The notes under the pieces are model-generated. The model made no database searches. It had not been told where the DNA came from and saw nothing but the letters and a program-made list of their open reading frames with translations. From a bacterium (GTDB lineage: Bacteria > Patescibacteriota > Doudnabacteria > UBA920): a stretch of DNA of 64,000 nt. Positions 1 through 43,066 of the stretch are shown piece after piece. The stretch lies in NCBI GenBank assembly GCA_016699995.1, contig CP064996.1, forward strand, positions 754,963-818,962, written 5' to 3'. Made by a program: the position numbers and the translations under genes. The first letter of the stretch is position 1. The number at the start of each line of letters is the position of its first letter.

Positions 1-3000
1 AGACTCTTTCGGATGTAAAGCCAGCTTTCTTGCCGGCAATTATCAAATAGCAAGTACCCCTATCTGATCCTCTGTCAGAACAGATTATACTGCCGTCACG
101 CGGAGCAATAAACCCTTCAATCGGCAGCTGCAGATCGCCGGTGGTAGCTGGTACGACAGACTTAAAATTATTAAAGGTATAAGAAAGGAAGGCTCCTGCC
201 GAAGTATAAGGCCTTAACGTGTTATTGCTGGTGACTGTGTATATAGTCCCGTCGGCAGTTTTGATGTTAGCGCCTGCCTTGCTAGCCGGACCCTGTTTGG
301 TGGTTTGCCCGGATTTGGAGTATTCGATAGTAGCAGTAATAACTTCACTGGATTGCCCGTAGGAAGTATACAATTTAGCGTACACGGTCTTGAGCCCATA
401 GTTGCATACTGCCAAATGTTTACACAGATCCCACTGCTTACCAGAGGAGTACTTTTCCTGCCCTACAAAACTGAAGTCGGAGGTATTGGAAATTGCCATG
501 TTGGCTATATCCGAACCTCCATTGAAGGACAAGACAACATTAGAGCTTGATGTAGTTTTTGCACCGCCGTTAATTTGAAGCTTAAATCCACCGGAAGGAG
601 CGACAGGAGATAAGTATGCAATTGACGGCAAACCGCCTCCGACTGAAGGGCTGCCAAAAATAGAGAACACAGAGAACTGCGTGGTGGTGCAAGTAATTGT
701 ATTTGCAGAGGTATTTACAACGCAATCGCTTAACGGACTCCAACTAACGCCGTTATACCTGTAAACTACTAAAGCTGATTCGTTGATCCCTGCCACATCG
801 CTCTCCTGATAGCTAAACGTCAAAGTAATGGCAGAGTTAAAGCTTGTTACAGGGGTATCCAGATTGGTCAAAGATTTAAGGTCGAAAACCAGGCCCACAG
901 GGTTAACCCCGGACGGCTTGCCAATATTCGCCAAGACAGTCGTCTTATCGAGTTCTTTGATTTGGAATGTTGCGTTAGCACCTACGGCCCCCATAGGTAT
1001 GGTCAATTCCAGGCCGTTGGAACCGGAAGTCAATTGGGCGGTTCCGCCAGTGCCATTATTTACGCTCGTAGCAGACTGGGTCACGACTGTAGCAGAGCCA
1101 GCACAGCCAGTAGTAGTGAAGCTATTGGCGCCGCCGGTTGCCAAGTTGCTGGCTGCGTCATTTGATTTAACTCGGAAATAATAGGTAGAACAAGAAGTTA
1201 AATTGGTAAGGTTAACGGTGTGGCTTGTTACGCGGGGAGAAGTATCAGCTTCGCTAGTGGAAGTCCCGTAGCTAGAAGTAAGGCCATATTCCACCATAGA
1301 TGAGCTGTTCTCGTCCGTGGTCCAAGTGATAGACGCAGAATTACTGCCCGGGGTTGCAGAAACTGATGAAATCGACGGTGCGGTGCCATCGGCAGTGGTG
1401 GAATTCACAGATGTTGTATTTCCAGCTCCATTAGAATTGGCAGCTTTGACCCTAAAGTTGTAAGCTGTTCCACTGGACAAACCTGTTACCGTAGCAGAGG
1501 CTGTCGTAGAGGTGCCATCATTAAAAGTGCTCCAGGTGCTCGCCGCTGATTCTTTATACTCAATAATATAGTCGGTGATGCTAGATCCTCCATTACTTAC
1601 CGGAGCGGTCCATGAAAGCGCAACCGAAGTACTGCTCGGATTAGCAGACAAGCTGGTTGGCAACCCAGGATAATTCAATCCTAAAACATTTTTAGTAACC
1701 GTAACCATGCTGCTTGTAACGGTTTTCAAACCGGCATAGCTCCAGTGGTTTGCGTCACGCAAAGCTGCACCTGTGGAATCGATAGCGTACACATTAGGCT
1801 CCGAAGCGGCTAACTCATTGATTGCCGTGTTATAGGTTCCGTAACCCATAGACTGGAACCCTGTGAGAATAATAATCGCTCCGGGCAAATCGGCTTTAAT
1901 CCTGTCCATCCATTCAATCATATTAGTCTTCCAGGTTGAAACGTTATTTCCAGCAATAGCATCATTAATACCTAAGCTTAAAAATACTACCCATTTGCGG
2001 TTTTCCGGCAGCTGGGTTTTGGCAGCCGCTGTACGCTGCAAAAATTTGGTCCAATATGTCTGGCCGACAGCCCAGTTGGTAACTTGAGAACCGCCATGGC
2101 CAGTCTTAACCAAATAAACTTGAGGATTATCTGGGAAAGCATGCTCTTCTGTAGAGTTTGCCAATTGAAGTTCAAAGCCATGACAACAGTCATAATAACC
2201 TTCTAAGCCAGAGTGGTCGCGCAGGTTATTTGTCCCTATATCCAAATTCTCATACAAGAAATTGCCAGAAGTTAGATTCATTATCTGTACCGCCGAGCGA
2301 GATGCCAATTCCCCTACGGTAGCTTGACTATTTAATCCGATACCACCAGAATTGCTTTCGCCGGTAATAACAAAACTCAAAGTACTGATTGCATCGGGCG
2401 TTGCAGAAGCAATGGCTGAAGACGTACCGGGATTGCCATCATTAGAGCCTTTTACTCTAAAATCGTAAGCAGAACCATTTGTTAAGCCAGTAACAATGGC
2501 CTTTAGGCTAGTAGAAGTACCGTCATTAAAAGTCGACCAAGTGGAAGGTTCGGAAGAAAGCTTGTACTCAATAACATAATCGGTTGGCGTGCCTCCCGAA
2601 GTCGGAGCATCCCACCCGAGCAGCACTTGGCGGTTAAAACCGGTTGCAACCAGACCTGTAACTTGACCGGGGGCTTGCGGCAACTGAGGAGTTGCCGAAT
2701 TTGACGCGCTTGAAGCTGCGGAATCGCCCTGAACGTTAGTGGCTTTGACGGTGAAAGTATAGGCTACGTCATTAGTAAGCCCGGTCACAGTGATAGGAGA
2801 GCTGCTGCCGCTGGCTGTAACCCCGCCCGGCGAGGACGTAACTGTGTAGCCAGTAATGGCGCTGCCGCCATTAAAACTCGGTGGTGTAAATGTAACGACT
2901 GCCGAACCATTGCCAGCCGTAGCGGTACCGATTGTCGGGGCATCAGGAACAGTATCCACCGGAGTTTCACCGTAGACAACAACTTCATCAAAGGTACTGG

Positions 3001-5962
3001 CAGTGCCGGAGTTCTGCAGGAACACGGGTTTGTTATTAACCACAACAGCCGTGTTGTGAGTACATACCAAGACATTGTCCTTATAAACTTCAAAACCACC
3101 AGAAATGATTTTCATCTTGTAAATTGCTGCTCCAACGCTAGCCGTACCACAACTCGTTTGGGTCATAGCAGTATTGTCCCAAGACAGCGCTAAGATAACC
3201 GACGAACCCGCTCCAGATATATATACGAGGTAAGCCTTTTTGTTCGCACTTGCAAACTGATAATCACCGTATCCCAAGACGGGACCGGAGCCAGAAATCA
3301 TGCTTGCAGAAATTTCTAGAGAGGTGGAACTGAATACATCCTGGGAGATTAAAGCATTTTGAGCCCAGTTCCCACCTACATAACTATCTGCAATAGTTAA
3401 TGAACCATTTTGTTGAATCTTTCCCGTCGTCCCGCCGGAACCAGTAGGGTCATATTCATACCATTTATCAGTATTAATGGTTGTCCCAGTAAAACTATCC
3501 GTGAGTTGATTCGCCAAAGTACTCGGAGTTACCGAGTTTGAAGCTGAGGATGCCGAGGAAGTTCCAGCTGAGTTGGTAGCGGTAACCGTAAACGTGTAAG
3601 AGACGCCATTGGTAAGGCCTGTCACAGTTAGCGGCGATGATGCGCCAGAAGCAGTAAAACCGCCTGGAGACGATGTCACTGTATAGCTAGTTATAGAAGC
3701 GCCGCCATTATCCACCGGAGGACTAAATGACACAGTGGCTTGAGTATTACCACCTTCTGCTGATACACCAGTTGGGGCATCTGGTGCCGTTGGAGGGCCA
3801 GGGGTTTTTGTAGCAGTTCCGCTAGCGGTGCCAGTGCCTATAATATTCACTGCTTTAACCCGGAAATCATAACTTAGACCGTTGGTTAAACCAGTTATAG
3901 TAGCAGTGGTAGAGGTAGAAGTACCATCGTTAAATGTGGACCAAGTTGTTGGCTCTGAACTCAGCTTATACTCCACTATATAATCTGTAATGGCTGTGCC
4001 GCCGTTACTAGCCGGTGCAGACCAAGACAGCCCAATCTGGGTGTCTCCTCTGCTTGCACCGAGAGAGGTGGGAGCGCCGGGAACAGTCGGGCCAGACACA
4101 GCAATGTTCCATTTAGTAGAGAGATAGTTTTCTAAAATATTTCTTTGATCAGAAGTGATTGTCGAACTATAAGCGATGACTTCAGCAATATCGCCGTTCC
4201 AATAACGGCCGCCGCCGTTAATCATACCTATTGAAGAAGTTGTATTGGTCATACTGGAAGGCAGCTGAAAAACACCAATCCAATATTCATTTAGAGGCGA
4301 GAAGTCGTGGCCGCTAGAAGCAGCAATAGATGTGCCATTGCGGTGAGCCAAAGAGAAACTGCTAGTCGCTGACCCTAATTTAGTAGTACCATCTATCCCA
4401 TTCAAAACATGACCGTTACCTGGCGAGGTTCCTGTAAAATCACCGATCAAACCTGGGTAATTGCTGAAAGCCGCGGAAGTACTCTTTTTGGCAACGATGG
4501 CTACGGTGCGGTATGTAATTGAGCTGCCAATATTAAAATAATCATCACTGCCGTCAAAATTCATTACCGAACGGCCATTAAGGGCATTGGACACTAACGT
4601 CGGACGGGCTGTGCTCGCAGATGTAGCGTTTTTGCCATTTCCGCTTTTGTCATTGACCTGACTGATCCTGTCCCCAGACACGCTCATATTATCCGCATCT
4701 GCCCCGTCTAACCATAGAGCCAAATTAGGAATACTTGGAGGAATTTCTTCGTTTGGAGTAACCGCATTAGATGCGCTGGAGGCTGACGACGTGCCTATGG
4801 CGTTTGTAGCAGTAACTGTGAAAGTATAAGAAACACCATTAGTAAGGCCGCTCACAGTAATCGGGGAAGAGGACCCCGTACCTGTAAAACCGCCTGGGGA
4901 AGATGTCACAGTATAACCAGTAATGGTACTGCCGCCATTAGAGCCGGGCGTGAAGGAAACCGAAGCAGACTCATCACCAGCTACCGCAGTGCCAATTGTA
5001 GGTGCAGCCGGCGCCGTGGGCGCAGAAGGGGTTGCATTGGCAGTACTACTGGCTGTTCCAGTACCGACAGCGTTAATGGCGCTCACTCTAAAATTATACA
5101 GAGACCCGTTGCTTAAGCTTGTAACCGTTGCCGAGGTGGAAGTAGATGTACCGTCATTAAATGTGGACCACGTAGTTGGCTCCGAATTCAATTTATACTC
5201 TACTAAGTAATCCGTGATGGCAGAACCGCCATTCGAACCAGGAGCAGACCAGGTTAGTGCCACCTGGGCATCGCCTGCTTCCGCACTTAAACCGGTAACT
5301 TGACCAGGAGCCGTTGGCGCTCCGCCATTGCCTGTTACTAAGACATCATCGAATGTAGATGCTGCGGCGGAAGATTGCAAAAATATTTTCTTATTGTCCA
5401 GTGCTACCCCAGTACTCTGGGTACACATCAGCACGCCATCTTTATATACTTCAAACCCGCCAGAAATAATTTTCATTTTATATACAGCACCGGCGGTATA
5501 AGTGCCGCAGGTTTGATTGGCCACCAATGTTCCATTATTCCACACTAAACTCAAAGGATTCCCAGATCCTAAAATATCCAGAATGTAAGCCTGAGTTCCC
5601 CCAGATTAGAAATTATAATCACCATATCCCAGTAGCGCGTCTGAGCCTCTGGTAATTCTGGCGGAGACTTCTAAAGTGTCCGAGTCAAATGTATCAACCG
5701 ACGTTAAAGCATTTGTGCCCCATACACTTCCAGCAAAACCCTGGGAAGCAGTTAAGGTGCCGTTCTGTTGAATGTTGCCGGTTGTCCCACCAGAACCGCC
5801 TGTATCAATTTCTTGCCATTTATTCGTGTCGATCGTCGTACCAGTAAAGTCATCCGACAGCAAAGTTGCCGAAAAAACAAAAGGGACAGATGCAAATTGT
5901 CCGATTATCACAGAAGATACCAAAAGAATTACTGCAAAATAATTGCGGAGATTGGAAGTCAT
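1..5962 (-). pseudogene. Giant secreted multidomain surface protein, 3'-partial (runs past coordinate 1). Architecture: signal peptide, LamG/ConA-like jelly-roll domains, many fibronectin type III domains, and an SGNH/GDSL-type esterase domain at about 1700-2400. The reading frame is interrupted by an in-frame TAA at 5606-5608 and by an apparent compensating +1/-1 frameshift pair near 4378-4381 and 4256-4262.
   Basis: Hand translation of the minus strand in frame (codon first base congruent to 1 mod 3) gives continuous, domain-like protein. Repeated FN3-type segments appear throughout (for example, SWSAPASNGGTAITDYIVEYKLSSEPTTWSTFNDGTSTS..LTNGLSYDFRVKAVN). LamG-type motifs are present (MINGGGRYWNGDIAEVIAYS). 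SGNH esterase blocks are present (ITGESNSGG, LSLGINDAIAG, DANHW). The N-terminal 118 codons carry a signal peptide and are separated from the rest by a single in-frame TAA. Low GC-skewed antisense ORFs are the only track ORFs in this region. Confidence 0.6.
5606..5962 (-). CDS. N-terminal 118-aa fragment of the giant surface protein (signal peptide plus the start of a LamG-like domain), terminated by an in-frame TAA.
   Basis: The ORF-track ORF MTSNLRNYFAVILLVSSVIIGQFASVPFVFSA... ends GYGDYNF followed by TAA. The codon directly after the stop continues the same domain (SGGTQAYILDILGSG...), which aligns with the paralogous internal copy GYGDYQFASANKKAYLVYISGAG. Confidence 0.7.
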   Translation of the reverse strand: MTSNLRNYFAVILLVSSVIIGQFASVPFVFSATLLSDDFTGTTIDTNKWQEIDTGGSGGTTGNIQQNGTLTASQGFAGSVWGTNALTSVDTFDSDTLEVSARITRGSDALLGYGDYNF

Positions 5963-9255: not shown

Positions 9256-9265
9256 TTTATTGTTA

Positions 9266-9380
9266 AAGGGCAGCTACCTACTTTTGCACTGGCATGCACC
9301 AGACTATCATCGGCACGAGCGCGTTTTACTGCTGAGTTCGGGATGGGATCAGGTAGGACCGCACTGTAAATGCCACCCGG
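9266..9380 (-). rRNA. rrf: 5S ribosomal RNA.
   Basis: The reverse complement contains CCGAACTCAGCAGTAAAACGCGCTCGTGCCGATGATAGTCTGG...AGTAGGTAGCTGCCC, which aligns with the bacterial 5S consensus. Helix I is 5' GGGUGGC / 3' GCUGCCC. The ends are approximate, within a few nt. Confidence 0.8.
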
Positions 9381-10053
9381 CTGGCAATTCCTGCTATTAC
9401 GGCAAGCCGTAAAAGAGAAACTACCAGCTAGAAGGCATTTAACCTTTTAACTTTGAAAACTAAATAGTGGTAACGAGTTTTGCCGGTTTTAAACCAGCAC
9501 CATACTCTATTGCAAGACACTCAAACATTAACCGCGATTTGCTATTACAAATTGCTTGTCAATGATTCGTATAATCCCTTTCTAAAAAGAAAGAAATAGA
9601 TTAGAACTTTCGGTTGATTAGTATTGCTCGGCTCAATTTATTACTAAACTTACACCTGCAACCTATAAAATCGCCACTTTTTAATCCAGGCAAGCCCTTC
9701 ATAAAAAATATTGATTGAAATACGCAGTAGTCTTCTGCGAACCTTTCGTATCCCGAAGGATACAACGAAACCTAGTCTTATGGACAGCTTCGCGCTTATA
9801 TGCTTTCAGCGCTTATCTAAACTATACCTAGCTACCCCGCCATGCTCCTGAAGGAACAACGGGTACACCAGAGGTATATGCATCTCGGTCCTCTCGTACT
9901 AGAGACGCGCCCACTCAAGTTTCGTACACCCACAGCAGATAAGGACCAAACTGTCTCACGACGTTTTGAACCCAGCTCGCGTACCACTTTAATTGGCGAA
10001 CAGCCAAACCCTTGGGAGCTTCTTCACCCCCAGGACGTGATGAGCCGACATCG

Positions 10054-10431
10054 TACCTGAATCCATACTTTCATATGGTGCAGACTATATCTTCATCTTA
10101 TCAACGACGTTAGGCTGGTAGGCCATAGTCTGTTTGTTTATGTTGCTAAGCAACATGATAAGAGTCGGCGTGTTACCTTGCGCTACTCATTATGTAGCCG
10201 ACAAAGTCTCCTCTTTCGAGTCAGTCGTTACGGGGTCAACGCTAATACTAGCGCGACTTCCCACGGTATCGCCGTGTAATACTTTTCTAACATACCACAG
10301 TATTACTTACGGGTTCACCGTTATAAGCCGATTTTATTTTCTTTCTATTATATCTAGAATAGTTTTACCTATTCTAAGACGGACGAAAGACCACAGTATG
10401 AGATCGCTCTCATAGCACCCCGATTAAGTTA
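10054..10431 (-). other. About 378 nt ORF-less insertion in 23S domain V at the position equivalent to E. coli about 2499/2500. Putative group I intron or intervening sequence.
   Basis: The flanks reconstitute the conserved GGCACCU|CGAUGUCGGCUC. The insert carries an AAGATATAGTC S-element-like motif followed by a CCATA-TGAAAG-TATGG hairpin (P9-like) about 45 nt from its 3' end. There is no ORF of 60 aa or more. Confidence 0.5.
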
Positions 10432-11189
10432 AGGTGCCAAACCTTCTCGTCTATGTGGACTATTGGAGAAGATCAGCCTGTTATCCCTAGAGTAACTTTT
10501 ATCCGTTGGGCTTTGCGTCTTCCACTCGAACGCATCGGATCACTAACTTCTGGTTTCCCACCTGCGCGAGTCGCCACTCTTGCAGTCAAGCAGGCTTATG
10601 CGTTTGCACTACCAGCGCGATTTCCATCCGCGCCTAGCCTACCTTAATAAACGCCTCCGTTACCATTTAGGAGGCAACCGCCCCAGTTAAACTACCCACG
10701 AGCCACTGTCCTTGATCAGGTTAGAATCAAGTTAGAATCAACATTCACACAGGGTGGTATTTCACTATTGCCTCCATTGTCGCTAGCGCGACAACTTCAA
10801 AGGCTCCCACCTATACTAAACAGTGTAAACACTGATTCAATAACACGCTATAGTTAAGCTTCATAGGGTCTTTCCGTCTTGCTGCGGGTAGACGGCATCT
10901 TTACCGCCATTGTAAGTTCATCGGAGTGTTCGTTAAGACAGTCCTCTACTCGTTATGCCATTCGTGCGGGTCGTAACTTACACGACAAGGAATTTCGCTA
11001 CCATAGGACGGTTATAGTTACCGCCGGCGTTCATCAGGGCTTGGGCTCCGAGGTTGCCCCAGGAGCTTTGACCTTCTGACACTGGCCAGGCATCAGCCCG
11101 TATACATCAGCTTGCGCTTTAGCACGGACCTAAGTTTTTGATAAACAGTCGGGAGAGGTCATTCGCTGCGGCCTGTTTAACATGCTGGG

Positions 11190-11712
11190 TAAATGGGCGG
11201 AGACTAAAGTTTTTCGTAACCTTGACCTAGCTTGGCACCAAGCGTTTAGTTTACGATTATTTTAGACTCCGCAGCTCGTCGGAAGGAGGGTTCCGTACGA
11301 CGAACAAGAAATGGAATGGGAAGACAACCGCTAGATAGCAGTTATATTCACCTAGAAATTAGGTGAGCAAAGCCTCTTAACAACTGAGCCGGGCGGCGTC
11401 ATTGTTTTACTGCAGCTTAGAAGCTTTGCTCACCACGGCCTACCGGCACTCGCTTCACCCCCTTGAAAGTATGAGGCGGTGCTATTCTTACCTACCGGAA
11501 GAATTCCAGAATTGGCAGTATGGCCGAAACAAAAGTGGGACACACGAGAGGGATTGAACCCCTGACCTCTGCCGTATCAAGGCAGCGCTCTACCCAAGTC
11601 GTAATAACTAGGATCTACCCGGGTAGATGCCTAATCTTCGTACACTGAGCTACGTGCGTCATTAACTTTTATATTTTTCTTTTTTCCATTTACCCAGCAT
11701 GCAAACAGGCAA
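11190..11712 (-). other. About 520 nt intervening sequence in 23S at the helix-63-equivalent site (after about E. coli 1700), closed by a 24/25 bp inverted-repeat stem.
   Basis: 5' arm CCTGTTTGCATGCTGGGTAAATGG (rc of about 11688-11712). 3' arm CCATTTACCCAGCATGTTAAACAGG (rc of about 11190-11215). Nearly perfect complementarity with one bulge. The conserved 23S sequence resumes directly outside both arms. Confidence 0.65.
11530..11660 (-). ncRNA. tRNA-Ile(GAU)-like element embedded inside the 23S intervening sequence, carrying a 47 nt insertion in the D-loop.
   Basis: rc reads GACGCAC-G-TAGCTCAGT-[47 nt insert containing palindrome ATCTACCCGGGTAGAT]-GGGTAGAGC-G-CTGCC-TTGATAC-GGCAG-AGGTC-AGGGG-TTCAATC-CCTCT-CGTGTGTC-CCA. 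It has an acceptor stem, D-stem, anticodon stem with a GAT loop, T-arm GGTTCAATCC and 3' CCA. It resembles, but is distinct from, the genuine tRNA-Ile at 36229..36305. Confidence 0.5.
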
Positions 11713-12382
11713 GGTATATACCGAAGGTACACCTGCTGTATTGCCGAGTTCCTTAACGAACATTGATCCGGACGCCTTAGGATTCTCTCCTCATCCACCT
11801 GTGTCGGTTTGCGGTACGGACAGTTACACGCGTAACCACGACGCTTTTCTTGGCACCTTGGTTCACCCAAATTGCTCTTGCGAGCTTTCTCCATATCTTC
11901 GAGATTACACCAAGCTAAAGTCCCGGAGGACTTAAGCCCAGTTTGAAATTCCGGATTTGCCTAGAATTTCTCCCTACGGATACAGCGACGTACATAGTCA
12001 GAGTACGCTCAGGCTACCATGATGCGTCCCGTCTTGGATAACGCATAACTGGTCAGGGAATATCAACCCTGTTTTCCATCGGATGCACCCCTTGGGGCGC
12101 ACTCTTAGGATCGACTAACCCTGGGACGACGATCGTTGCCCAGGAAACCTTGGATATTCGGCGAAGGGGATTCTCACCCCTATATATATTACTTATTCCA
12201 ACATTCTCACTTGTGCACAGTCCACGAGCCCTTACGGGTCTCGCTTCTGCCCAGTACACAACGCTCCTCTACCGCTATACAAAAATAAATTTATGCATAA
12301 CCCGCGTCTTCGGCACCTAGCTTAGCCCCTATATATTGTCGGCGCAGGATCGCTTGACCAGTGAGCTGTTACGCTTTCTTTA

Positions 12383-12419
<37 letters not shown>

Positions 12420-13259
12420 GAGCAATCCCACATCCTTTGCACTATAGCTAGGATTTGGGGGCCTTAGACGGCGGTGTGGATTCTTCTCCATTCGACCAAT
12501 GGACCTTAGAGCCCATGGTCTAACTGCCACGTTATTTATTCATCAGAATTCGGAGTTTGGTTCGAATCCGACAGTTTCCCACCGGAGTCCGATTCAGTGC
12601 TCTACCTCTGTGAGGAACACGTGACGCTAACCCTAAAGTTATTTCGAGGAGAACCAGCTATCACCCGGTTCGATTAGAATTTCTCTTCGACCCACAGCTC
12701 ATCCCCTGTTTTTGCAGCAACAGTGGGTTCGGACCTCCCGTTGCTTTTACACAACGTTCATCCTGGCCATGGGTAGCTCACTCGGGTTTCGGGTCTAGCG
12801 CGTGCGACATTAAAGAGTATATTCAGCGTCCAGTCGAAACTGAAAACTGAATATATCTTTATACGGACTATTAATCCTCGCTTTCACTACAACTTCGTGT
12901 TTGTTAACACTTAGTTAAGCCACACACAACTAACTCGTTGGATCATTCTTCAATAGGCACGCCGTTAACCTGCGCTGCGGGCAAGCCCGAGCGTTAGGTC
13001 TTCGACTCCTTGTAAGTATATGGTTTCAGAGACTATTTCATTCCCCTTCCGGGGTGCTTTTCACCTTTCCCTCACGGTACTCGTTCACTATCGGTCACTA
13101 TGAGTATTTAGCCTTACGTATTAGTCTACGCTAATTCAGTCCAGATTTCTCGTGTCTGGACTTACTCAAGAAAAAGATCAGGAATTGTATGATGTTTCAC
13201 TATACGGGACTGTCACCCTCTTTGGTCCGCCTTTCCAGGCGTGTTCTGCTACATAGCAC

Positions 13260-13480
13260 ACTAATGTTCCTCTGCGGAATTACTGTTCCGCAACGTCAAT
13301 TCTTATAACGCCTATACTGCAACGCCAGTAAGCTTTAAATTTAATCTCGCTAGTAAACTAGTTTGAAAAAATAACACAGTAAAGGTTTGGGCTAATAGAT
13401 AATTTATTCACCAGACACCAGCATAGGTGTACGATGAATAAATTTCTATATATCTCCGCGTTCGCTCGCCACTACTAACG
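13260..13480 (-). other. About 185 nt AT-rich expansion in 23S domain I (helix 9/10 region).
   Basis: Between the conserved GGCGAGCGAACGCGGAG and ACACGCCTGGAAAGGCGGACC the window has about 230 nt versus about 45 nt in E. coli. It contains the hairpin-forming inverted repeat aatttattcacc...gatgaataaatt. Confidence 0.45.
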
Positions 13481-14250
13481 GAATCGACAAGTGCTTGCGC
13501 ACTCTTTCTTTATTTTCCTCATGCTACTGAGATGTTTCACTTCGCATGGTTCCCGCTCATTTATACCCCACGGTATAAAGGCATGCATTCTTCAAATGCA
13601 TAGGTTTCCCTATTCAGAAATCTCCGGATCAAAGGTTATTGCCACCTCCCCGAAGCGTATCGCCGGCTATCGCGTCTTTCATCGGCTCATAGTACCAAGG
13701 CATCCACCATATACCCTTCTCTGTTTTAATCTACAAGATTATACAGAATTATTTTTGGCTTGCGCCAAAAGTTTTGACAAGCAATTCGTAAAAACAAATT
13801 ACTCGTCGGATACAATGTTTGATAATTGGTTCAGTACAACATCTATTCGCTGTACTTAATTTATTATTCTCACTCTGCGAGCTTTTCAGCCCGCTTATGA
13901 TTTTACTTACAATATTGTTCTGTTGGTTGAAGACAGAACAAATTACCACTATTTAGTTTTCAAAGTACATGACTGATTTCGGCTTGCTCTATATTATAGA
14001 GCGAACTGGTGACTCGAACGACAACTTTCCAGTTGAAGATTGAACGAGGCACAGAAATATTTCCAGTCAGATAACTACTGCTCTGCTAACTAAGTTAGCA
14101 TCCGGTAACATCTCGCCTGATTCCCTAAGAATTAATGGAAGGGCTACATACCTGAGAGCAGTAAATACCTGATTAGAAAATTGTGTTTGAAAGAACGGGT
14201 GGAGAAACAAATTTTGGCGACAAAAAAACCGCAAATCGCGGTGTAAGCTA

Positions 14251-14681: not shown

Positions 14682-17241
<2,560 letters not shown>

Positions 17242-17280: not shown

Positions 17281-17320
17281 ATTCCATTCAAGATTTGAGA
17301 ATAATGAATTCGGCGGGTAA

Positions 17321-18202
17321 CTAGGGCACAGGAATATATACGGTATAGGTTCTGGTTAATCCCAAATAATTCGCCACGACCTTCAATACTTTTTTTCCTA
17401 TAAACGGTAGGCCCTTTGCGGTAGCCCCATCGGCAGCATAAGAAGTGATATTCAATTGAACGTTATTCACCGGATCCGTATTCTGAACGATCAGCTCATA
17501 CTGATAATCGGGGAAAAAAGTGGAAATAGACATCGGCGGTCCTTCTGATAGATTACCATAATCGGTAGTAGTTTCTCCGGCTTCGGGGTCTTTAGGTATG
17601 CCGCGCAAGCTAATGCGAAGTTGACCTGTATTGCCTACCGCAACCCGCTGCAACCGGATTAATCCATACTGCAAGCTATAGTCATTTAACGAGTATAAAG
17701 GAAATACTTGTGTCTCCCCGGCAAAAATAGTTGTCAGTTTAGGAGTTTCGTCAAAATCCAAAGGCTGAGGATCACCGTCTTTTTCTGTGGGAAGCTCTAG
17801 TCTCACGTTGCCTATCAAGCATATCCCGTTTCTGGAGGGGAAGCAGGAAGGCACATCCATTAGCGTAACGTTATCACCGTCACTACGCTCGTTAACATAG
17901 CGTTTGTACTGAAACAAGGCCTCTTCGGTTACGCCCAAAGTCGCATACAAGTTAGGTTCGCTGCGAACCAGGTCGCGGGAAGCCCGAAGTTCTATAAAGA
18001 CGATAGTCGCCAAGCTGAACACGATAGCAGTTATAGCTGCCAACACAAGCACCGCCATCATTAGCGATACCCCTTCTTGCTTATGGTTCTTATAGAGGTG
18101 GAATGTCATATGCATCGGTAGAGATTGTGCTCTGATAATTAATAACTGACTCGTCGCGCAAGCCTTCGTATACCCTGAAAGCTGGCTAAAGATCGTTACC
18201 AT
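17321..18202 (-). CDS. Pilus-associated membrane protein with a degenerate prepilin-like N-terminus. The start is probably internal.
   Basis: KQEGVSLMMAVLVLAAITAIVFSLATIVFIELRA resembles a prepilin leader plus hydrophobic helix. It is the last gene of the pilD/minor-pilin operon. Confidence 0.4.
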   Translation of the reverse strand: MVTIFSQLSGYTKACATSQLLIIRAQSLPMHMTFHLYKNHKQEGVSLMMAVLVLAAITAIVFSLATIVFIELRASRDLVRSEPNLYATLGVTEEALFQYKRYVNERSDGDNVTLMDVPSCFPSRNGICLIGNVRLELPTEKDGDPQPLDFDETPKLTTIFAGETQVFPLYSLNDYSLQYGLIRLQRVAVGNTGQLRISLRGIPKDPEAGETTTDYGNLSEGPPMSISTFFPDYQYELIVQNTDPVNNVQLNITSYAADGATAKGLPFIGKKVLKVVANYLGLTRTYTVYIPVP

Positions 18203-18272
18203 TGGCTGGACGCCTTTATTATTACTTAAAGGATCTGTTGTTGGCCTAACAATAAATCTAAAAGTATCCGGA

Positions 18273-18683
18273 TTAATCGTTAAAGTTCTGAGGATTAATT
18301 GACTCTTCCGTTGACGTGGAAGAAGTATCTCTGCGGAGCATCAGCTCTTTCGTGTCAGTTTTAAAGTAGAAGCATAGCCTGTCTCCCGTATAGGTGATAA
18401 TAGCCAAAGACTGGTTGGCATTATTAGCATAATTACTCGCTGCACAATTGCCGCTTCCATTGTAATCCACACGCCCATTGCGGATTTCCCTAGACAATAC
18501 CTCTGTAAAGTTGCGGGCCGCTTGCGAAACCTGACGCTTTGCCTGCACCTCACGATTGATGCGCAGAACATAATTGAAGAGCACCAATACGGCGGAGATA
18601 ACCATGGCAAAAATCCCGGTAGCAACAATAATTTCTACTAAGGTGAATCCAAACTGCTTTTTATGAATTAAACGTTGAGACAT
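18273..18683 (-). CDS. Type IV pilin-like protein (prepilin-type N-terminal cleavage/methylation domain).
   Basis: KKQFGFTLVEIIVATGIFAMVISAVLVL N-terminus. Confidence 0.7.
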   Translation of the reverse strand: MSQRLIHKKQFGFTLVEIIVATGIFAMVISAVLVLFNYVLRINREVQAKRQVSQAARNFTEVLSREIRNGRVDYNGSGNCAASNYANNANQSLAIITYTGDRLCFYFKTDTKELMLRRDTSSTSTEESINPQNFND

Positions 18684-18684
18684 G

Positions 18685-19371
18685 CTAATAATTCTTCCAG
18701 TTAGTTAGATAGGTTTCTAAAGTAATCAAACAAGAATTACTCGTAGGAACATCAGCAGATGCCGGACATCGCTTGTCTGTCCACCAAACATCCACCCGCA
18801 CTCTTACCCTCGGCCCGGTTGATTGGTCAAAAGGAGGAAAATCCTCTGTAGTCAAAGTGATTTTACGGCTGAATCCAGAATCACCGGTACTATCTGCGCT
18901 TGGCTTAAAAAAACCGGTCGCGAGATTGCTAGTATCATAGTCCAGGCCATAGCCGCTATTGGTTTGAGTAAGTTCCCAGTAAGAGTGTTCATTGTTGCTG
19001 TTAGCATTAAAACCCAGTCTATAAGTTCTAGAAATAGCACCACCCGGGAAAATGCTGTAACCCCCGCCAGCCCCATTTAGCCACCCCTGATAGCAATTGC
19101 CGGCATCGGTCTGGGTGTAAAAATCAAAACAATTAGTGCTAAGACTGGTTCTTAGCCAGTTGGTATCTCGCATGTTTTTTACAGCCTCCATGCCTTCACG
19201 GGCCAATCCCGTAGCCTGAAGCTGTTTAGAGATGCCGCTAGTGGCATTTAAGCCATATACAGCCAGTCCAACAGCCGCAGAAATTCCCATGGTCAAAACT
19301 AAAGCCGCGACCATGGTCTCGATTAAGGTTTGTCCACGCTGATTTGTTTTTAAATTTTCATCGACTAACAT
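18685..19371 (-). CDS. Type IV minor pilin-like protein.
   Basis: QRGQTLIETMVAALVLTMGISAAVGL prepilin-like N-terminus. Translationally coupled to its neighbours. Confidence 0.6.
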   Translation of the reverse strand: MLVDENLKTNQRGQTLIETMVAALVLTMGISAAVGLAVYGLNATSGISKQLQATGLAREGMEAVKNMRDTNWLRTSLSTNCFDFYTQTDAGNCYQGWLNGAGGGYSIFPGGAISRTYRLGFNANSNNEHSYWELTQTNSGYGLDYDTSNLATGFFKPSADSTGDSGFSRKITLTTEDFPPFDQSTGPRVRVRVDVWWTDKRCPASADVPTSNSCLITLETYLTNWKNY

Positions 19372-20218
19372 TCGTATAGCACTTATAACTTGAAGCTAAC
19401 AACGTCCGAACAGTCTCCACCAGAATTCTATAAAACCCGCCTTCAGTACATTCCGGAGGAAGTGGTGGATCTACTGTCTCATCGCCGCCGCCGGTAACAT
19501 CGCCGGTCCCATCTCTACCTCCACCACCGTATTGACCGCCACCACTCCCATCACCGTTTCCATCGCCGTCGCCAGGATTATCGATTGCTGGACCACCTAA
19601 AAAGTTTGGTCCTGGTTCTGCTTGCTCAACTTTTCCACTCAAGCCATGCACCTTTAAAACCTTGGAACTGCCGTCCTGAGAATGAGACAATGTTAAATCC
19701 ATGCTGTAGTTCGCCCAGGGAGCTAGTTCTGGGAAATTTTGAGCAACTGCCGAAATGCTGGAATCGCAAATACTTGAACCGTACAAATATGTTTTTCCAA
19801 AAACAACACCAGAAATAACAAAGGCACACTTATAATCTGTCTCAACACCGGACGAATCTCTGAGCGTTATATCGCCCGCAGTAACACCTGACGGTAGGTT
19901 TATCGTTTCAACATCATAGTAAGAAAAAGATGTGCTAGCAATCGCGTGGACAGTATAAGAAGACGCACCGCCTTCGAAGCGGGTCAGATAATACTTTGGA
20001 GCTTCGCCGGTCGGCAAGTTACGGGAAGAAACGGCGTAAGCTTGCACCTTACGAAGGTTAGTAATAGTTTCATTCTGGGCAATTGCTAAAGTCCGGCGAG
20101 GCTTTTGCTGGTTCCAAATTACAATGCCGGCGCTAGTTAACAGCACCATAATCACAAATACCACCATCAATTCGATGACGGTAAAACCTTTTTGTCGGTT
20201 TGTCTTTTGATTTCTCAT
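19358..20218 (-). CDS. Type IV pilin-like protein with a Gly/Asp-rich C-terminal region.
   Basis: KGFTVIELMVVFVIMVLLTSAGIVIW N-terminus. The C-terminus contains a GDGDGNGDGSGGGQYGGGGRDGTGDVTGGGDE low-complexity tract. Confidence 0.7.
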   Translation of the reverse strand: MRNQKTNRQKGFTVIELMVVFVIMVLLTSAGIVIWNQQKPRRTLAIAQNETITNLRKVQAYAVSSRNLPTGEAPKYYLTRFEGGASSYTVHAIASTSFSYYDVETINLPSGVTAGDITLRDSSGVETDYKCAFVISGVVFGKTYLYGSSICDSSISAVAQNFPELAPWANYSMDLTLSHSQDGSSKVLKVHGLSGKVEQAEPGPNFLGGPAIDNPGDGDGNGDGSGGGQYGGGGRDGTGDVTGGGDETVDPPLPPECTEGGFYRILVETVRTLLASSYKCYTNVSR

Positions 20219-20248
20219 AGTTTTGAGCTTTTCTTAAGTATAACACAA

Positions 20249-21070
20249 TTAAACTAGGCCAATTAAGCCAAAGTACCAGTTAGCCAACTGCAAACCAAAC
20301 ACTATAGTGATCAGGGCAGCTACCGATAAAAAGGTACCAAACGGAATTTTGCTTGTGAGCTCTTTCTTTCCGGCAATAAGCAGCGGCAAAGATACTGCAC
20401 TGCCTAACAAAAAAGCAATAAAATAACATACCCATATCTGCGGAAACCCAAACATCGCCCCCAAAAACAAGCCCAGCTTGGCATCACCCAAGCCCATCCA
20501 TTTACCCTTGGAAATTTTATGTAAAATATAGAAAGGAACAAAACCGGCAATCATGCCAAGAAGGCTGTTTAAGAGATACAACCCTTGCCCATCCAGCGAC
20601 ATGCCGGAATACCATCCAAAAAACGCAACCATCACCAGCAGTACCGCCGTCGCTGGATATACTACCTTGTTTAAAATTAAATAATGTTCTAGGTCGATAA
20701 TAAAAACGATTAACAGCACGGAAAAAATAAACCAATACCTCACAATGAGTACGCTGTCGATTAGCCAGTTATAAGCAATAGGCGACACCAGAATTACCGC
20801 CAGAACAAATAAAGCCCCGGTAATAAGCTCGATTAAAGGATATCGCAAAGAAACCTTCTTCTTGCAATAACGGCACTTGCCGCCAGAAACTAGATAGCTA
20901 AACACAGGAACCAAATCTTGCCATCCCAGAACATGCTTACAATGTGGGCACTGGGAACGGCCGGTAATTTTCTGATCCCGCGGCAATCGCCATATGAGAA
21001 CATTTAAGAAGCTGCCGATAAACCAACCAAATAAAAAAACCGCCAGTAAAATAAGAGGATGTGTTTCCAT
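20249..21070 (-). CDS. pilD: Prepilin peptidase (A24 family).
   Basis: 273 aa polytopic membrane protein. N-terminal CPHCKH...CRYCKK zinc-binding motif plus conserved A24 peptidase blocks. TAATG overlap with the upstream ORF. Confidence 0.8.
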   Translation of the reverse strand: METHPLILLAVFLFGWFIGSFLNVLIWRLPRDQKITGRSQCPHCKHVLGWQDLVPVFSYLVSGGKCRYCKKKVSLRYPLIELITGALFVLAVILVSPIAYNWLIDSVLIVRYWFIFSVLLIVFIIDLEHYLILNKVVYPATAVLLVMVAFFGWYSGMSLDGQGLYLLNSLLGMIAGFVPFYILHKISKGKWMGLGDAKLGLFLGAMFGFPQIWVCYFIAFLLGSAVSLPLLIAGKKELTSKIPFGTFLSVAALITIVFGLQLANWYFGLIGLV

Positions 21071-21456
21071 TATTTTACTGGAGCTTTAATGATGTTTACG
21101 CCTTCCTTAAAACCGCTGACTCCTTTAGTGAGACAAAGTCGCAATTCATAGTCGTTTCTAAAATTATTGGAGTACTGAAACGTCGCAGGGCATTGCTCAG
21201 AAGGATATTGCTTAGGAGGAAAGCCGCTCACGTATTGGCGCATAAGATTATCGTCTTTAAACTCGTCTGTTGCCGGGTAGCGATTTTGGTCCTGATAAAA
21301 ATATTCCAATGCTTGTTTTATGGCGTTAGCGTCTTTAACTGCCTGCCGGCTTTGGCCAGCGTGCTGACCCGCGCGGTAAGCCCACCATAATAGCAATACT
21401 GCCAGCGCTATAAAAATGACCCCTGCGGAATACTTAAGTATTTTCAACTTATTCAT
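21070..21456 (-). CDS. Hypothetical membrane-anchored protein, first gene of the pilD operon.
   Basis: 128 aa with an N-terminal TM helix. Stop overlaps the pilD start. Confidence 0.4.
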   Translation of the reverse strand: MNKLKILKYSAGVIFIALAVLLLWWAYRAGQHAGQSRQAVKDANAIKQALEYFYQDQNRYPATDEFKDDNLMRQYVSGFPPKQYPSEQCPATFQYSNNFRNDYELRLCLTKGVSGFKEGVNIIKAPVK

Positions 21457-21537
21457 GCATATATTATAACATTTATACCCAGGTTTAGGTTATCTCAAAA
21501 CCAAAAATACGCCCGTAAAGCCTGTGCCTCTTTTTCT

Positions 21538-22839
21538 TTACCGACCTTGAAGACTGAGAATATGAAAGATTGTCCTAAGGATAATTTCTAGATCAAACCA
21601 CAGGCTGCGATGCTTGATATAATAAAAATCATATTGCAATTTAAGCCTAGTTCCCTCTACAGAATTGGCATACACATGCAGCTGGCTCCAGCCGGTAAGA
21701 CCAGGCTTAACAATATGGCGTTCGTTGTAATAAGGGATCTGCTCAACAAGACTTTCTACGATCGCCGTCTGCTCTGGCCGCGGACCCACAAGGCTCATGT
21801 TGCCTAAGAAGATGTTCCAAAATTGAGGCAGTTCATCCACGCGAAGCCTGCGCAAAAACTTGCCCACTCGAGTGATGCGCTTATCTTGTTCTTGAGTCCA
21901 GATATCTGTTGGACTGCCGGAGGTCATGGTTCGAAGTTTGAAAACGTTAAAAGGCTTTCCGCCTTGTCCGATCCGTTGCTGAACGAAAAATACCGGCCCG
22001 GTAGAATCTAATTTGATTATTACGAACAAGAAAGGCAGCAATATAGCCAACAGCAGACTTCCTAGTGCACCAACTACTAAATCTAACACCCGCTTAATGG
22101 CATCGCTCAAGCGCCGTGGAGCATAATTGACCGAGCGTAAAAACCATATCTCGCTTACCTTTTCTAAAGGAACCATGCGCTGAGTAAGTTCTATAAATTT
22201 GTGGTATTCCAAAAATTCCACACCTTGCCGCTTATGCTCAAATAAGCTGCGCAATTCGGAATCGTTTAAGGAAAAATCAACAGGTAAAATTACTGTTGCT
22301 CTATTCAAGTGAATATCTAAAGAATCCAAATCATACCTACCAGCAAACCGCCAGCCCAAAGTCCGGTGCACATCTAAATACTGTTCTATACCAACATGCA
22401 AGTTTTGCTCATACACCAACGGATGCAAATACAAATGCTTTTTCCAAATCCTCGGAAGGATATTCTGGATCAAACTATACCATAAAGCCAAGCCCAGGGT
22501 GGTGATTAGCAAATGAACCACTAAGAAGCGTCTTGGTGTTAGAATTAATTCCGGCTGAAAGTAAAAATAAGCCACAGCTATTATACCGCAAGTAAGCATC
22601 GCGCCCAGCAAGCGTGAAATAACCAGCAAGGTAGAACGGAAGGTAGCAAGGTCAAATAAGGTATATATGAATAACACCACCAGCCATATCGCATAGATCA
22701 CCGAAAAATGCACTAAGTGGTCTTGCCACCCCTGTTGCGGCAAACCGCCTGGATACCAAATCATAATAGTCAACACCAAGCCCGCATAAAAGAACAGCAA
22801 TGCTGGCGCTATTAGTAACCAAAATCTATTCATGGTCAA
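21538..22839 (-). CDS. Undecaprenyl-phosphate sugar phosphotransferase (WbaP/WcaJ-type initiating glycosyltransferase).
   Basis: 433 aa. N-terminal TM helices. C-terminal bacterial sugar transferase domain: LSDAIKRVLDLV...IKLDSTGPVFFVQQRIGQGGKPFNVFKLRTM...DELPQFWNIFLGNMSLVGPRPE. Confidence 0.8.
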   Translation of the reverse strand: MTMNRFWLLIAPALLFFYAGLVLTIMIWYPGGLPQQGWQDHLVHFSVIYAIWLVVLFIYTLFDLATFRSTLLVISRLLGAMLTCGIIAVAYFYFQPELILTPRRFLVVHLLITTLGLALWYSLIQNILPRIWKKHLYLHPLVYEQNLHVGIEQYLDVHRTLGWRFAGRYDLDSLDIHLNRATVILPVDFSLNDSELRSLFEHKRQGVEFLEYHKFIELTQRMVPLEKVSEIWFLRSVNYAPRRLSDAIKRVLDLVVGALGSLLLAILLPFLFVIIKLDSTGPVFFVQQRIGQGGKPFNVFKLRTMTSGSPTDIWTQEQDKRITRVGKFLRRLRVDELPQFWNIFLGNMSLVGPRPEQTAIVESLVEQIPYYNERHIVKPGLTGWSQLHVYANSVEGTRLKLQYDFYYIKHRSLWFDLEIILRTIFHILSLQGR

Positions 22840-23947
22840 TAATTGTTAACTCGATCAATTTCTTGAGGTTTTCCCTGAATCTGCCATAGCTGTACTCTCC
22901 GGTCACTCTGGCCAAAGCTGCCTGCCCATACCTGTGACGCAACTCAGGATCATCTGTTAATCTCATTATCGCTTGACGCAAAGCAGATTCATCAGCCGGC
23001 CTAACCGTTAGACCTGTGTACTCGTGCAGACTAACTGTAGGAACAGCGGTCGGAAGATTAGTATTAATTACCGGCAGGCCGTGCGACATAGCCTCCAGCT
23101 GAACCAACCCAAAGGCTTCGGATTTAGCAATCGACGGCAGTACAAATATATCGCTATCGGCGTAAAGCGCGGACAAATCAGCAACCGGTGGGATAATTCT
23201 TACATTAACTAACTCTAAATCTTTGATTAAATCCTTTAGCTGTTTTCTCAATGGCCCTTGGCCAACTATGGCAAGCTCTGCATCCACGCCAGCCATGGCT
23301 TTAATCAAATATTCATAGCCTTTATAGTATACCAACCTGCCAACGGACAAAATCTGGACAATCTGATTAGCGGAGTTACCCGAACCTTTCTCATTCACTT
23401 TTTTAGCAGGCAACTGTCCACCCAAAAATGGAATAACTATAAGCTTACTCCTACAATTATTTAGTAAATTAGAATTCTCAGCAATTGCTTCATGAGATAC
23501 AATCACCCGTAAAGCTTTTTGCAGAACCATTTTTAGTAGCGGCCTAATAAACATAGCCATGGCTTTTTGCCTAACAATATCGGAATGATACCAAACCACC
23601 ATAGGTTTGTTTTGGGCGTAGAGCCAGTAAGCAAAGAAGCCGAATGGAAAGGGGTGGTGCAAAATGATCAGATCATAATTGCCTGCTATCTCCTTAAATT
23701 TTTTTAGAAAGCTCCACGACAGCGGCATGCCAAAAGCCACCCCTGCCCTGCTTTGCCTGTAGATTGTATTAGCGCTGCCATTAAAGCCCGAACGCGCTAC
23801 CTCGACAGAGTCGTGCTTGTCTTCTGCGAAACACAGCACATCGCCTTCAATATTCTCATTGCCAAAAACCTGGTGGATATCTCTGACCACTGTCTCTATC
23901 CCACCAATGTGAGGATGAAAATATTTATTTACCTGAAGAATCTTCAT
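22826..23947 (-). CDS. Glycosyltransferase family 4.
   Basis: 373 aa. GGIETVVRDI...EAFGLVQLEAMSHGLPVINTN motifs. Confidence 0.75.
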   Translation of the reverse strand: MKILQVNKYFHPHIGGIETVVRDIHQVFGNENIEGDVLCFAEDKHDSVEVARSGFNGSANTIYRQSRAGVAFGMPLSWSFLKKFKEIAGNYDLIILHHPFPFGFFAYWLYAQNKPMVVWYHSDIVRQKAMAMFIRPLLKMVLQKALRVIVSHEAIAENSNLLNNCRSKLIVIPFLGGQLPAKKVNEKGSGNSANQIVQILSVGRLVYYKGYEYLIKAMAGVDAELAIVGQGPLRKQLKDLIKDLELVNVRIIPPVADLSALYADSDIFVLPSIAKSEAFGLVQLEAMSHGLPVINTNLPTAVPTVSLHEYTGLTVRPADESALRQAIMRLTDDPELRHRYGQAALARVTGEYSYGRFRENLKKLIELTIIDHE

Positions 23948-25063
23948 TTGGCAAACGTTTGCAATAATATTTGAGCAGCTTGTTCCCAGCTAAAACGGGT
24001 TATATTAGATTGCCCTGCCCTGATCAAAGCTGCAGAGGCTTCTGGTTGCAGTACACGGGCAATTGCCTCTTCCAAGTCTTTAATGTCATTTGGATCTACC
24101 AAAATAGCGCCCTCGCCTGCTACTTCCGGCATGGAAGTCGTATTGGACGTTATTACCGGAACGGCCAAGCTCTGAGCTTCCAAGATAGGCAGCCCAAAAC
24201 CTTCATAAAAGGAGGCAAAGTACATCGCCGCAGAGTTGCGAATTAAGCTTACTTTTTCCTGGTTGCTTACAAAACCCAAAAATCTGATTCTTTCTCCCAT
24301 TTCCAGCTCCGCTAGCAGAGCCTGCAAATTTGCAAAGTCCTGGTTCTGATTACCGGCCAGAGCAAACGCCAGCTCAGATTCGGGATGGGACTTGGCATAT
24401 TCGGCGTAAGCCTTGGATCATTCCGGCAATGTTCTTGCGCGGATTGAGACTACCCACATAAAACAAATAAGCTTTTGGTTTTAATTTGAATTTTGCCAGC
24501 ACTGGACTGTCTTCTGACGTGTCCACGTGCGGCAAATGCGGCACAGCCTCTTTGACCACCGCAACTTTATAAGGATCGAACCCATACTGCGAAACCAGTT
24601 CCTGCTTGGAGAAATCGGAAACTGTAATAATCCTTTTTACACATTGGGCTGAGCAGGAAACTGAGCTGGATGTAGGCCCGGGAAAGCAAATTTCTAAATT
24701 CCTTAAAGCGCTTGTAAGCTGCATCATGAATAGTGTTGACCTTGCTGCATGGTGCCAAAAACTAAAAAACGGCGACGGACTATACAATACATTTACTCTG
24801 TGGACCGCCGCATAAAAGGGCATTAAAACTTGCTGGGTAAAAATTACTCCCGCCGAATTTCTAAGCCTATAAAAGTTAACTACCCTCACCCGATCGGACA
24901 CGGTTTCTGATAGCTTATCCAATTCTAAAAACTGCTGGCTGCCCTTGTATATAATAATTTTATGTCCGCTGCCAATTCTGGCCAAAGCGCCGATAATGTT
25001 TTCTGTAAAAACTTCGGTGCCCTGGTAAGTGCGAAAAATGGTTAAGTCTATTCCTATGGTCAT
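23944..25063 (-). pseudogene. Glycosyltransferase family 4, frameshifted near 24411-24416 (CC/GG run).
   Basis: The N-terminal fragment (24374..25063) ends ...YVGSLNPRKNIAGMIQ, then out-of-frame junk. The adjacent frame continues AYAEYAKSHPESELAFALAGNQ...EGFGLPILEA...PEVAGEGAILVDP. Deleting one G restores MIQAYAEYAK. Confidence 0.75.
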
Positions 25064-25072
25064 AACTGCATG

Positions 25073-27920: not shown

Positions 27921-27947
27921 GACTTAATTATACACTGGCCGGGGATA

Positions 27948-27982
27948 CAAAAAAACCAGCCCGAAGGCTGGTTTTAATTTTG
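27948..27982 (-). terminator. Bidirectional Rho-independent terminator after pilA.
   Basis: aaccagcc-cgaa-ggctggtt flanked by A7 and a T-rich run. Confidence 0.6.
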
Positions 27983-27999
27983 TTTCAATCAGCTGAGAA

Positions 28000-28413: not shown

Positions 28414-28544
28414 CGTTCTCCTTGGATTAAAGAAGTCACAGCTCCTCCAACTGATCATCTATTATTAAATTTACTTATCTTAATTATACCATATGTTGAG
28501 CAACTGCAAGCGCAATTATCAACAAGTTGGATATTGAATGGAAA

Positions 28545-29748: not shown

Positions 29749-29750
29749 AA

Positions 29751-30821: not shown

Positions 30822-30830
30822 AGTTTGTTT

Positions 30831-31256: not shown

Positions 31257-31265
31257 AAGGCTGGT

Positions 31266-33071: not shown

Positions 33072-33072
33072 G

Positions 33073-35834: not shown

Positions 35835-35860
35835 AAAAACCGCCTTAGGGCGGTTTTTTC
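35835..35860 (+). terminator. Rho-independent terminator after tRNA-Ala.
   Basis: aaaaccgcc-ttag-ggcggtttttt. Confidence 0.7.
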
Positions 35861-35917
35861 ATACGCAAAATATCTTATACCCAGGCCGCCGGCCTTTATA
35901 TATAGTATAATTACTTT

Positions 35918-41603: not shown

Positions 41604-43066
<1,463 letters not shown>

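Follow-up and report, generated by a model that had tools for sequence, protein, structure and literature searches.

The transfer RNAs (tRNAs) encoded in the spacers of ribosomal RNA (rRNA) operons are freed by RNase P and 3' processing enzymes. In plant mitochondrial t-elements, in the mascRNA of MALAT1 and upstream of the Haloferax 5S rRNA, a non-decoding cloverleaf marks RNA ends for RNase P or RNase Z. Interruptions of the 23S rRNA gene itself are known from Salmonella, Leptospira and Campylobacter, and at helix 45 from Coxiella (PMC4990558), as intervening sequences (IVSs) of the RNase III type. In the mitochondrial large subunit (LSU) rRNA of Tetrahymena pyriformis, rRNA segments are split by a tRNA gene (Heinonen et al. 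1987, cited in PMC2996981). A survey of rRNA insertions in the candidate phyla radiation (CPR) describes a residual class of 500-1000 bp that is neither intron nor carrier of an open reading frame (ORF) and whose function is unknown; it reports Saccharibacteria as largely without long insertions and nowhere mentions tRNA (Tsurumaki et al. 2024, PMC11270868). Here we analyse a 64-kb stretch of contig CP064996.1 (the window), in which helix 63 (H63) of the 23S rRNA gene carries a long insertion with a tRNA-Ile(GAU)-like element inside it. Throughout the clade to which the window belongs, H63 bears a stem-closed, highly structured extension, and in one lineage the slot within it holds a canonical-looking tRNA gene.

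The helix 63 extension and its distribution

By Infernal alignment, 522 nt are inserted in the apical loop of the model's H63 hairpin, which reads GCCUGUUUG, then the 522 nt, then UAAACAGGC; alignment to E. coli rrlH identifies the interrupted hairpin as helix 63, E. coli 1707-1751. The extension is closed by a stem of 23 bp in total, composed of the 7-bp native base of H63, a 1x2 internal loop and 16 bp that are fully complementary. A 571-nt region folds at -231.5 kcal/mol (z = -9.1 against shuffled controls), with a cloverleaf in the minimum-energy fold. An earlier note on this DNA had described an IVS-like, stem-bounded insertion at this site, and that description is borne out. Only its span, 11190-11712, needs correction, as the left end lies 18 nt away and the true span is 11172-11709. 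The arms that it had called a near-perfect inverted repeat are complementary over all 16 bp of the upper stem and pair in six homologues. The A-rich linker behind the 5' arm contains the motif AAATATAAAAGTT, shared by five of the six homologues whose 5' ends were read.

One genome per species was scanned with a lineage-specific 23S core stretch as the query, which gave 17 loci, all on contigs of metagenome-assembled genomes that belong to the CPR/Patescibacteria by 23S similarity, and mostly labelled Candidatus Saccharibacteria. Six of these loci and one metagenome sequence share 94-99% identity with the window in a 755-nt 23S core, and the next relatives reach at most 85%. Six clade sequences span H63 on both flanks: the window, L012, L040 (the second assembly of L012), L013, L021 and L023. 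All six carry the insertion, at 549-946 nt counting the closing stem and short flanks. Measured from flank to flank (GGAACTNGGCAA to CGACTGTTTA), the distance is 589-986 nt in these sequences, 589 nt in the window, compared with 69-149 nt in distant CPR relatives, where H63 is typically a hairpin of 20-26 nt. The earlier note had left room for this stretch being ordinary H63 sequence in close relatives; the close relatives have the insertion, and it is those at 85% identity or less that have the short hairpin. It had also likened the architecture to RNase III-excised IVSs such as that of Salmonella; a sporadic IVS of that type does not fit an insertion that is carried by every clade sequence read and has a conserved stem and conserved interior motifs.

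The closing stem pairs in all 138 cells of the comparison (23 pairs in six sequences), with an identical base pair throughout at 21 of the 23 positions. The two variable pairs have both changed by compensation, from A-U to C-G in three sequences and from A-U to G-C in one. With blastn, the interior of the window's insertion aligns to none of the other homologues, not even where the 23S core is 96% identical, and is therefore fast-evolving. A metagenome scan with the stem sequence added one further sequence, on three contigs, and a viral scan with the same stem gave no match. Reaching further 23S genes through a conserved neighbouring NTP-transferase gene yielded only L040 and L050, as nearly all contigs stop at the rRNA. 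The contig of the clade relative L050 (JGI 3300079105, positions 1-4400) begins within the 3' end of the H63 insertion; the 3' half of its 23S gene contains three ORFs for LAGLIDADG homing endonucleases, even though rRNA introns of this kind are reported to be lacking in Saccharibacteria.

Despite the turnover of sequence, the 3' halves of all six insertions present the same elements in the same order. A GGTGAG...CTCAC helix has positional homologues in the other insertions, with different stem sequences, and is followed in conserved order by the motif ATTTCCATT. A hairpin with a UCCUCC loop stands on covarying stems in five of six insertions (the window, L006, L013, L021 and L023). In the window, this loop, CCCUCCUU, is the core of the genome's own 16S anti-Shine-Dalgarno tail (GGATCACCTCCTTTCT).

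Between 11100 and 11800 no intron or other Rfam family is found at E <= 10, and we reject a group I or II intron on this ground, whereas the insertion at E. coli position 2500 of the same gene does match Intron_gpI. The ORFs of the insertion, 42-87 aa in length, have no Pfam match at E <= 1, and none encodes an IVS protein (23S_rRNA_IVP, S23p). There is no second copy of the interior in the window or in the fetched loci, and no target-site duplication at the flanks (CCTTG/CCTG...CAGG/CCGCAG). A footprint of a mobile element, which the earlier note had entertained, finds no backing in these searches. BLAST of the insertion against phages and plasmids matched only 45-65 nt, from the anticodon and T arms, to ordinary tRNA genes. 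An internal promoter for the 3' half of the 23S was considered and rejected, there being no promoter-like site on the minus (rRNA) strand inside the insertion.

The tRNA slot and its possible processing

The element in the 5' part of the insertion is genuinely tRNA-shaped, as the earlier note had read it. Its acceptor stem (ACGCACG/CGTGTGT) has 7 bp, including one G-U, and is followed by TA (U8 and A9). The D stem (GCTC/GAGC) encloses AGT, a 47-nt insert and TGGGTA; after a G come the anticodon arm CTGCC-TTGATAC-GGCAG, with the anticodon GAU, the variable loop AGGTC, the T arm AGGGG-TTCAATC-CCTCT, C73 and CCA. All four stems are fully paired, and U8, A14, G18-G19, U33, G53-T54-T55-C56, A58, C61 and the CCA are present. 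The 47-nt D-loop insert, also proposed earlier, is confirmed with its 16-nt perfect palindrome ATCTACCCGGGTAGAT, which at 11613-11628 forms the tip of a hairpin that folds alone at -13.8 kcal/mol.

Whether tRNA finders recognise the element depends on this insert. ARAGORN makes no tRNA call on the native sequence, and calls tRNA-Ile(gat) in 57 of 72 variants from which the insert was deleted. The Rfam tRNA model RF00005 gives the part from the D stem to the 3' end 27.3 bits (E = 0.0019 for a search of 701 nt), below its gathering score of 29. With the tRNA finder and the covariance model that the earlier note had proposed, the native element thus stays short of the cut-off, and the finder calls it tRNA-Ile once the insert is gone. 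A search pattern for such a split tRNA has one match in the window and none in 100 shuffles. In viral contigs it has three matches, all false positives that reflect truncated and complete tandem tRNAs in phage arrays and are unrelated to the H63 finding. In these arrays (IMG/VR; L003 144-239, L004 7342-7417 and L005 3977-4052), a truncated 5' tRNA fragment (GTAGCTCAG...GAGCG) lies directly upstream of a complete tRNA-Ile(GAT).

The element is identical to the genome's own tRNA-Ile(GAU) at 50 of 77 positions, no more than unrelated tRNAs share, and a recent duplication of that gene is rejected. It departs from the latter at C73, C38 and A1-U72. An archaeal-type bulge-helix-bulge intron is likewise rejected, as the predicted fold places the boundaries of the insert within an almost unbroken helix that has 1-nt bulges, in place of the 3-nt bulges around a 4-bp helix that mark such an intron, and the host is bacterial. 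The canonical tRNA-Ile(GAU) elsewhere in the window makes the copy in the insertion redundant for decoding. Given that gene, C73 and C38, and the D-loop hairpin, the element is probably not a decoding tRNA.

L012, a related Saccharibacteria metagenome-assembled genome (GCA_964536745.1), has within its insertion, and on the rRNA strand, an intact gene for tRNA-Trp(CCA) that reaches 68.7 bits across the full model and has G73, an encoded CCA and a single C-C mismatch at 3-70. The same tRNA-Trp is present in L040, an independent assembly from another sample that differs at six sites in 726 nt, of which one is a variable position in the T-loop. L021 has a degenerate tRNA-like element (25.4 bits) at the same distance from the stem as in the window, and behind it follows the conserved block that lies behind the L012 tRNA-Trp. 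The slot is thus found holding an intact tRNA, holding one of two disrupted tRNAs of differing identity, or empty. Homologous insertions with a tRNA-like module, which the earlier note had proposed to look for, exist in L012/L040 and L021, and L006, L013 and L023 lack one. Its suggestion of a captured or decaying tRNA gene gains strong support from the intact tRNA-Trp in one slot and the more decayed copy in another.

We tentatively favour, while holding it short of probable, a reading in which the block is a lineage-specific, vertically inherited H63 extension of a narrow Saccharibacteria-like CPR clade of ultra-small bacteria and acts as a tRNA-hosting internal transcribed spacer. The insertion would be transcribed as part of the pre-23S RNA, and the 23-bp stem at its base would keep both rRNA halves paired. 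Its 5' part would be a slot for a tRNA, filled in the window by an element derived from tRNA-Ile(GAU). RNase P would cut at about 11659/11660 and a 3' nuclease after about 11536, with RNase III possibly also cutting the long stem. The anatomy makes excision by RNase P, RNase Z or RNase III, as the earlier note had suggested, plausible. The mature 23S would then consist of two pieces of ~2.07 kb and ~1.56 kb, the second after splicing of the group I intron, with the H63 stem and the remaining ribosome holding them together. These pieces may keep conserved stretches of the insertion.

The tRNA-Trp of L012 offers an argument for cleavage. To function it would have to be released by RNase P and a 3' nuclease, and cleavage of the 23S within H63 would then be a necessity in at least this lineage. 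RNase P and the 3' processing enzymes read the shape of the acceptor and T arm, not the identity of the anticodon or D arm. In the window's element a 7-bp acceptor is still stacked on an unbroken T arm, and G18-G19, the canonical T-loop and the encoded CCA are all in place, despite the fast-evolving interior around it. Since it retains the shape that these enzymes read, it is probably cut too, and a cut here would split the 23S in two. It is tempting to go further and to speculate that the 23S gene doubles as a tRNA host, with a functional tRNA-Trp in one lineage and relics in others, that tRNA enzymes split the LSU rRNA, much as tRNA punctuation does in organelles, and that the conserved remainder with its anti-Shine-Dalgarno-like loop forms a functional appendage at the ribosome surface; this fuller picture we regard as possible, if doubtful.

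Weighing the alternatives

Several observations weigh against processing at the slot. The conserved GGTGAG helix, the motif that follows it and the covarying UCCUCC-loop hairpin suggest that part of the insertion is a functional RNA, which may simply stay in the ribosome. The right arm of the D-loop insert repeats the adjacent GGGTAGA and looks like a local duplication or mutational scar. In the minimum-energy fold, the canonical D stem competes with the D-loop hairpin, which could block the L-shape. The L021 element has a D-loop hairpin of ~50 nt, a mismatch in the D stem, the anticodon CGC and no CCA, the pattern of plain decay. Finally, L006, L013 and L023 have no tRNA-like signal in their insertions; with three of six homologues lacking the element, the tRNA shape is no general requirement for handling the insertion.

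The conserved motifs would be accommodated if the insertion were left uncut and retained in the mature 23S as a bacterial counterpart of the eukaryotic expansion segment ES27, the tRNA-shaped part being a structural arm. The clade does possess a lineage-wide H63 insertion with conserved structure, as expected of an ES27-like segment: the insertion is in six of six sequences, its closing stem is nearly invariant, interior helices and the UCCUCC loop are conserved on covarying stems, and the whole is very stable (z = -9.1). H63 lies at the ribosome surface, where large expansions are tolerated. We nonetheless consider full retention unlikely. The intact tRNA-Trp of the relative works only if it is cut out, which would imply cleavage in at least that lineage, and an interior that, motifs aside, cannot be aligned at 96% core identity would be unusual for ribosome-bound RNA.

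A graded series runs from the intact gene of L012, through the element of the window, disrupted by its hairpin and perfect in all else, and the L021 element with hairpin, mismatches and no CCA, to the insertions of L006, L013 and L023, where none is left. Such a series could mean that the insertion is a neutral passenger, cut out by another route such as RNase III at the stem or else tolerated, and that its tRNA-like part was recently inactivated and is decaying, unprocessed. The canonical tRNA-Ile(GAU) elsewhere in the window agrees with this, as do C73, C38 and A1-U72, at which the element is unlike that gene. RNase P reads shape, however, and so intact a cloverleaf would be hard to leave uncut. 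An unconstrained pseudogene in an unalignable interior should moreover have mismatches in its stems, and the window's element has none. On balance, this explanation seems to us distinctly improbable.

That the element is a working tRNA, charged and decoding, whose 47-nt hairpin is borne as an additional arm at the D-loop's variable pocket or spliced by some unknown step, is very improbable. We know of no bacterial mechanism that removes a 47-nt insert from a D-loop. The boundaries of the insert are not of the bulge-helix-bulge kind, introns of groups I and II have a far greater size and none was found by Rfam, C73 and C38 differ from the window's tRNA-Ile, which already serves GAU, and the L021 counterpart has the anticodon CGC and lacks CCA. 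What can be said for decoding is that no stem or invariant residue is damaged and the CCA is encoded, that the insert lies at D-loop position 16/17, which is structurally variable, and that a comparably sized hairpin occurs there in a second lineage. A mobile element (a miniature inverted-repeat transposable element or degenerate intron) or an assembly artefact can be practically dismissed, for although the long terminal inverted repeat superficially resembles such an element and short-read contigs often break in or beside rRNA, the native base of H63 supplies 7 bp of the "repeat", target-site duplication, a second copy in 64 kb and phage or plasmid similarity beyond the tRNA part are missing, as are a group I/II signal at E <= 10 and a Pfam-matching ORF, and several independent assemblies agree exactly on the site of the insertion and share its stem.

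The surrounding genes and relation to known systems

The host 23S gene is 4135 nt long, compared with the 2925 positions of the Rfam model, and has several insertions. One, which follows E. coli position 2500 and lies at 10054-10431 on the minus strand, is a group I intron of 378 nt without an ORF; with Rfam Intron_gpI it reaches 41.1 bits (E = 4.5e-9), short of the gathering score, 50. The same intron occurs in L012, L016, L019, L021 and L023, and is precisely missing from L006 and L013. Two more insertions relative to E. coli, both on the minus strand, are one of ~178 nt in domain I (13256-13433) and one of ~53 nt near the 3' end (9670-9722). A TATAAT-like hexamer lies ~10 nt upstream of the mature-looking 5' end of the 23S (13735-13790, minus strand); so close a position would leave the 23S with hardly any 5' leader and perhaps without a classical end-to-end processing stem. 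The coordinates of the main features are collected in Table 1.

The 5S gene (9265-9380) and the 16S gene (41605-43071) are both on the minus strand. The rRNA genes are unlinked, with 28 kb separating 23S-5S from 16S on that strand. Between them, tRNA-Ala(TGC) and tRNA-Ile(GAT) lie on the plus strand with protein genes in between (35759-36305). The gene for an NAD-dependent DNA ligase is read in two ORFs (16237-16830 and 14682-16211, minus strand), with a frameshift beside a run of five A (16205-16250) that is either a pseudogene mutation or a homopolymer sequencing error. At 17300-33100 on the minus strand is a type IV pilus cluster that encodes pilins with N-methylation motifs, a prepilin peptidase and PilC-like proteins and PilB/PilT-like ATPases, with glycosyltransferase and O-antigen ligase genes interspersed.

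Table 1. Coordinates of the 23S gene, the parts of its H63 insertion and related tRNA genes (window positions unless a relative is named).
Feature	Position	Strand	Basis
Bacterial LSU (23S) rRNA gene, host of the insertion	9597-13731	-	Rfam RF02541, 2191.5 bits, full length; E. coli 23S alignments
H63 insertion including closing stem	11172-11709	-	Infernal alignment, E. coli equivalence, fold z-score
Closing stem, 5' arm CCTGTTTGCATGCTGGGTAAATGG	11686-11709	-	Arm complementarity
Closing stem, 3' arm CCATTTACCCAGCATGTTAAACAGG	11172-11196	-	Arm complementarity
A-rich single-stranded linker, 26 nt, stem to tRNA-like element	11660-11685	-	Direct reading
tRNA-Ile(GAU)-like element, 124 nt, CCA encoded	11536-11659	-	ARAGORN after insert deletion, Rfam, fold
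D-loop insert, 47-nt imperfect hairpin between T16 and the G18-G19 segment	11597-11643	-	Sequence reading, fold
GGTGAG...CTCACC helix, 16-nt arms, 94% complementary	11362-11434	-	Arm complementarity, homologues
Hairpin with loop CCCUCCUU	11276-11303	-	Comparison of homologues, 16S tail
Canonical tRNA-Ile(GAU) gene, same genome	36229-36305	+	ARAGORN; Rfam 75.2 bits
tRNA-Trp(CCA) in the 23S of a relative	L012 1795-1869 = L039 5063-5137; L040 3566-3640	- (L012)	68.7 bits

Like the RNase III-type IVSs of 23S rRNA, the insertion takes the place of a surface helix's tip and has ends that pair into a long duplex, no ribozyme splicing is involved, and the host belongs to a reduced-genome, host-dependent lineage. 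It differs in its site, H63 rather than H9, H25 or H45, and in its larger size of ~0.5-0.9 kb. It is fixed in the six clade sequences instead of sporadic, has conserved interior motifs and no IVS-protein ORF, and carries a tRNA or tRNA-like module. With its fixed presence and its conserved stem and motifs, it resembles a lineage-specific H63 expansion no less than a disposable IVS. The stem's conservation and the UCCUCC loop suggest a function. The eukaryotic ES27L shares the helix, a comparable size and the surface location, but stays in the mature rRNA, has no tRNA gene and shows no sequence relationship. Among the insertions surveyed in CPR bacteria, that of the window fits the long residual class (PMC11270868), and it contrasts with the picture in the literature of Saccharibacteria as nearly free of long rRNA insertions.

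The tRNA module has precedents of its own. In rRNA operons with the order 16S - tRNA-Ile(GAU) - tRNA-Ala - 23S, the spacer tRNA is also co-transcribed with rRNA and flanked by processing stems, and GAU is the classic spacer anticodon; here, however, the slot is inside the 23S gene, and the true genes for tRNA-Ile and tRNA-Ala lie unlinked on the other strand. None of the non-decoding, tRNA-like processing signals lies within a bacterial rRNA helix, and a corresponding function of the window's element is putative. The arrangement combines known kinds, an IVS or expansion segment of the 23S and an rRNA-embedded tRNA gene, in a combination that we have not found described for bacteria. A 2026 survey of Patescibacteria tRNA introns does not describe it, and the earlier note's remark that it was not known for a bacterial rRNA gene agrees with the full-text literature searched, which is incomplete, so that absence from it is no proof of novelty. 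A tRNA inside a 23S gene escapes or is masked by tRNA finders and rRNA annotators, and a genome of this kind may seem to lack tRNA-Trp.

Organellar rRNAs that are split by tRNA genes, together with the tRNA punctuation of mitochondrial transcripts, are alike in having a tRNA gene between rRNA coding segments and pieces that associate unligated. Their order is often rearranged and they have no conserved closing stem, whereas the bacterial halves described here are collinear and joined by a stem of 23 bp. If the slot is processed, the H63 insertion would provide a case of tRNA excision dividing an rRNA in a bacterium, and would link the spacer tRNAs of rRNA operons and the RNase III-type IVSs to the fragmented, tRNA-punctuated rRNAs of organelles.

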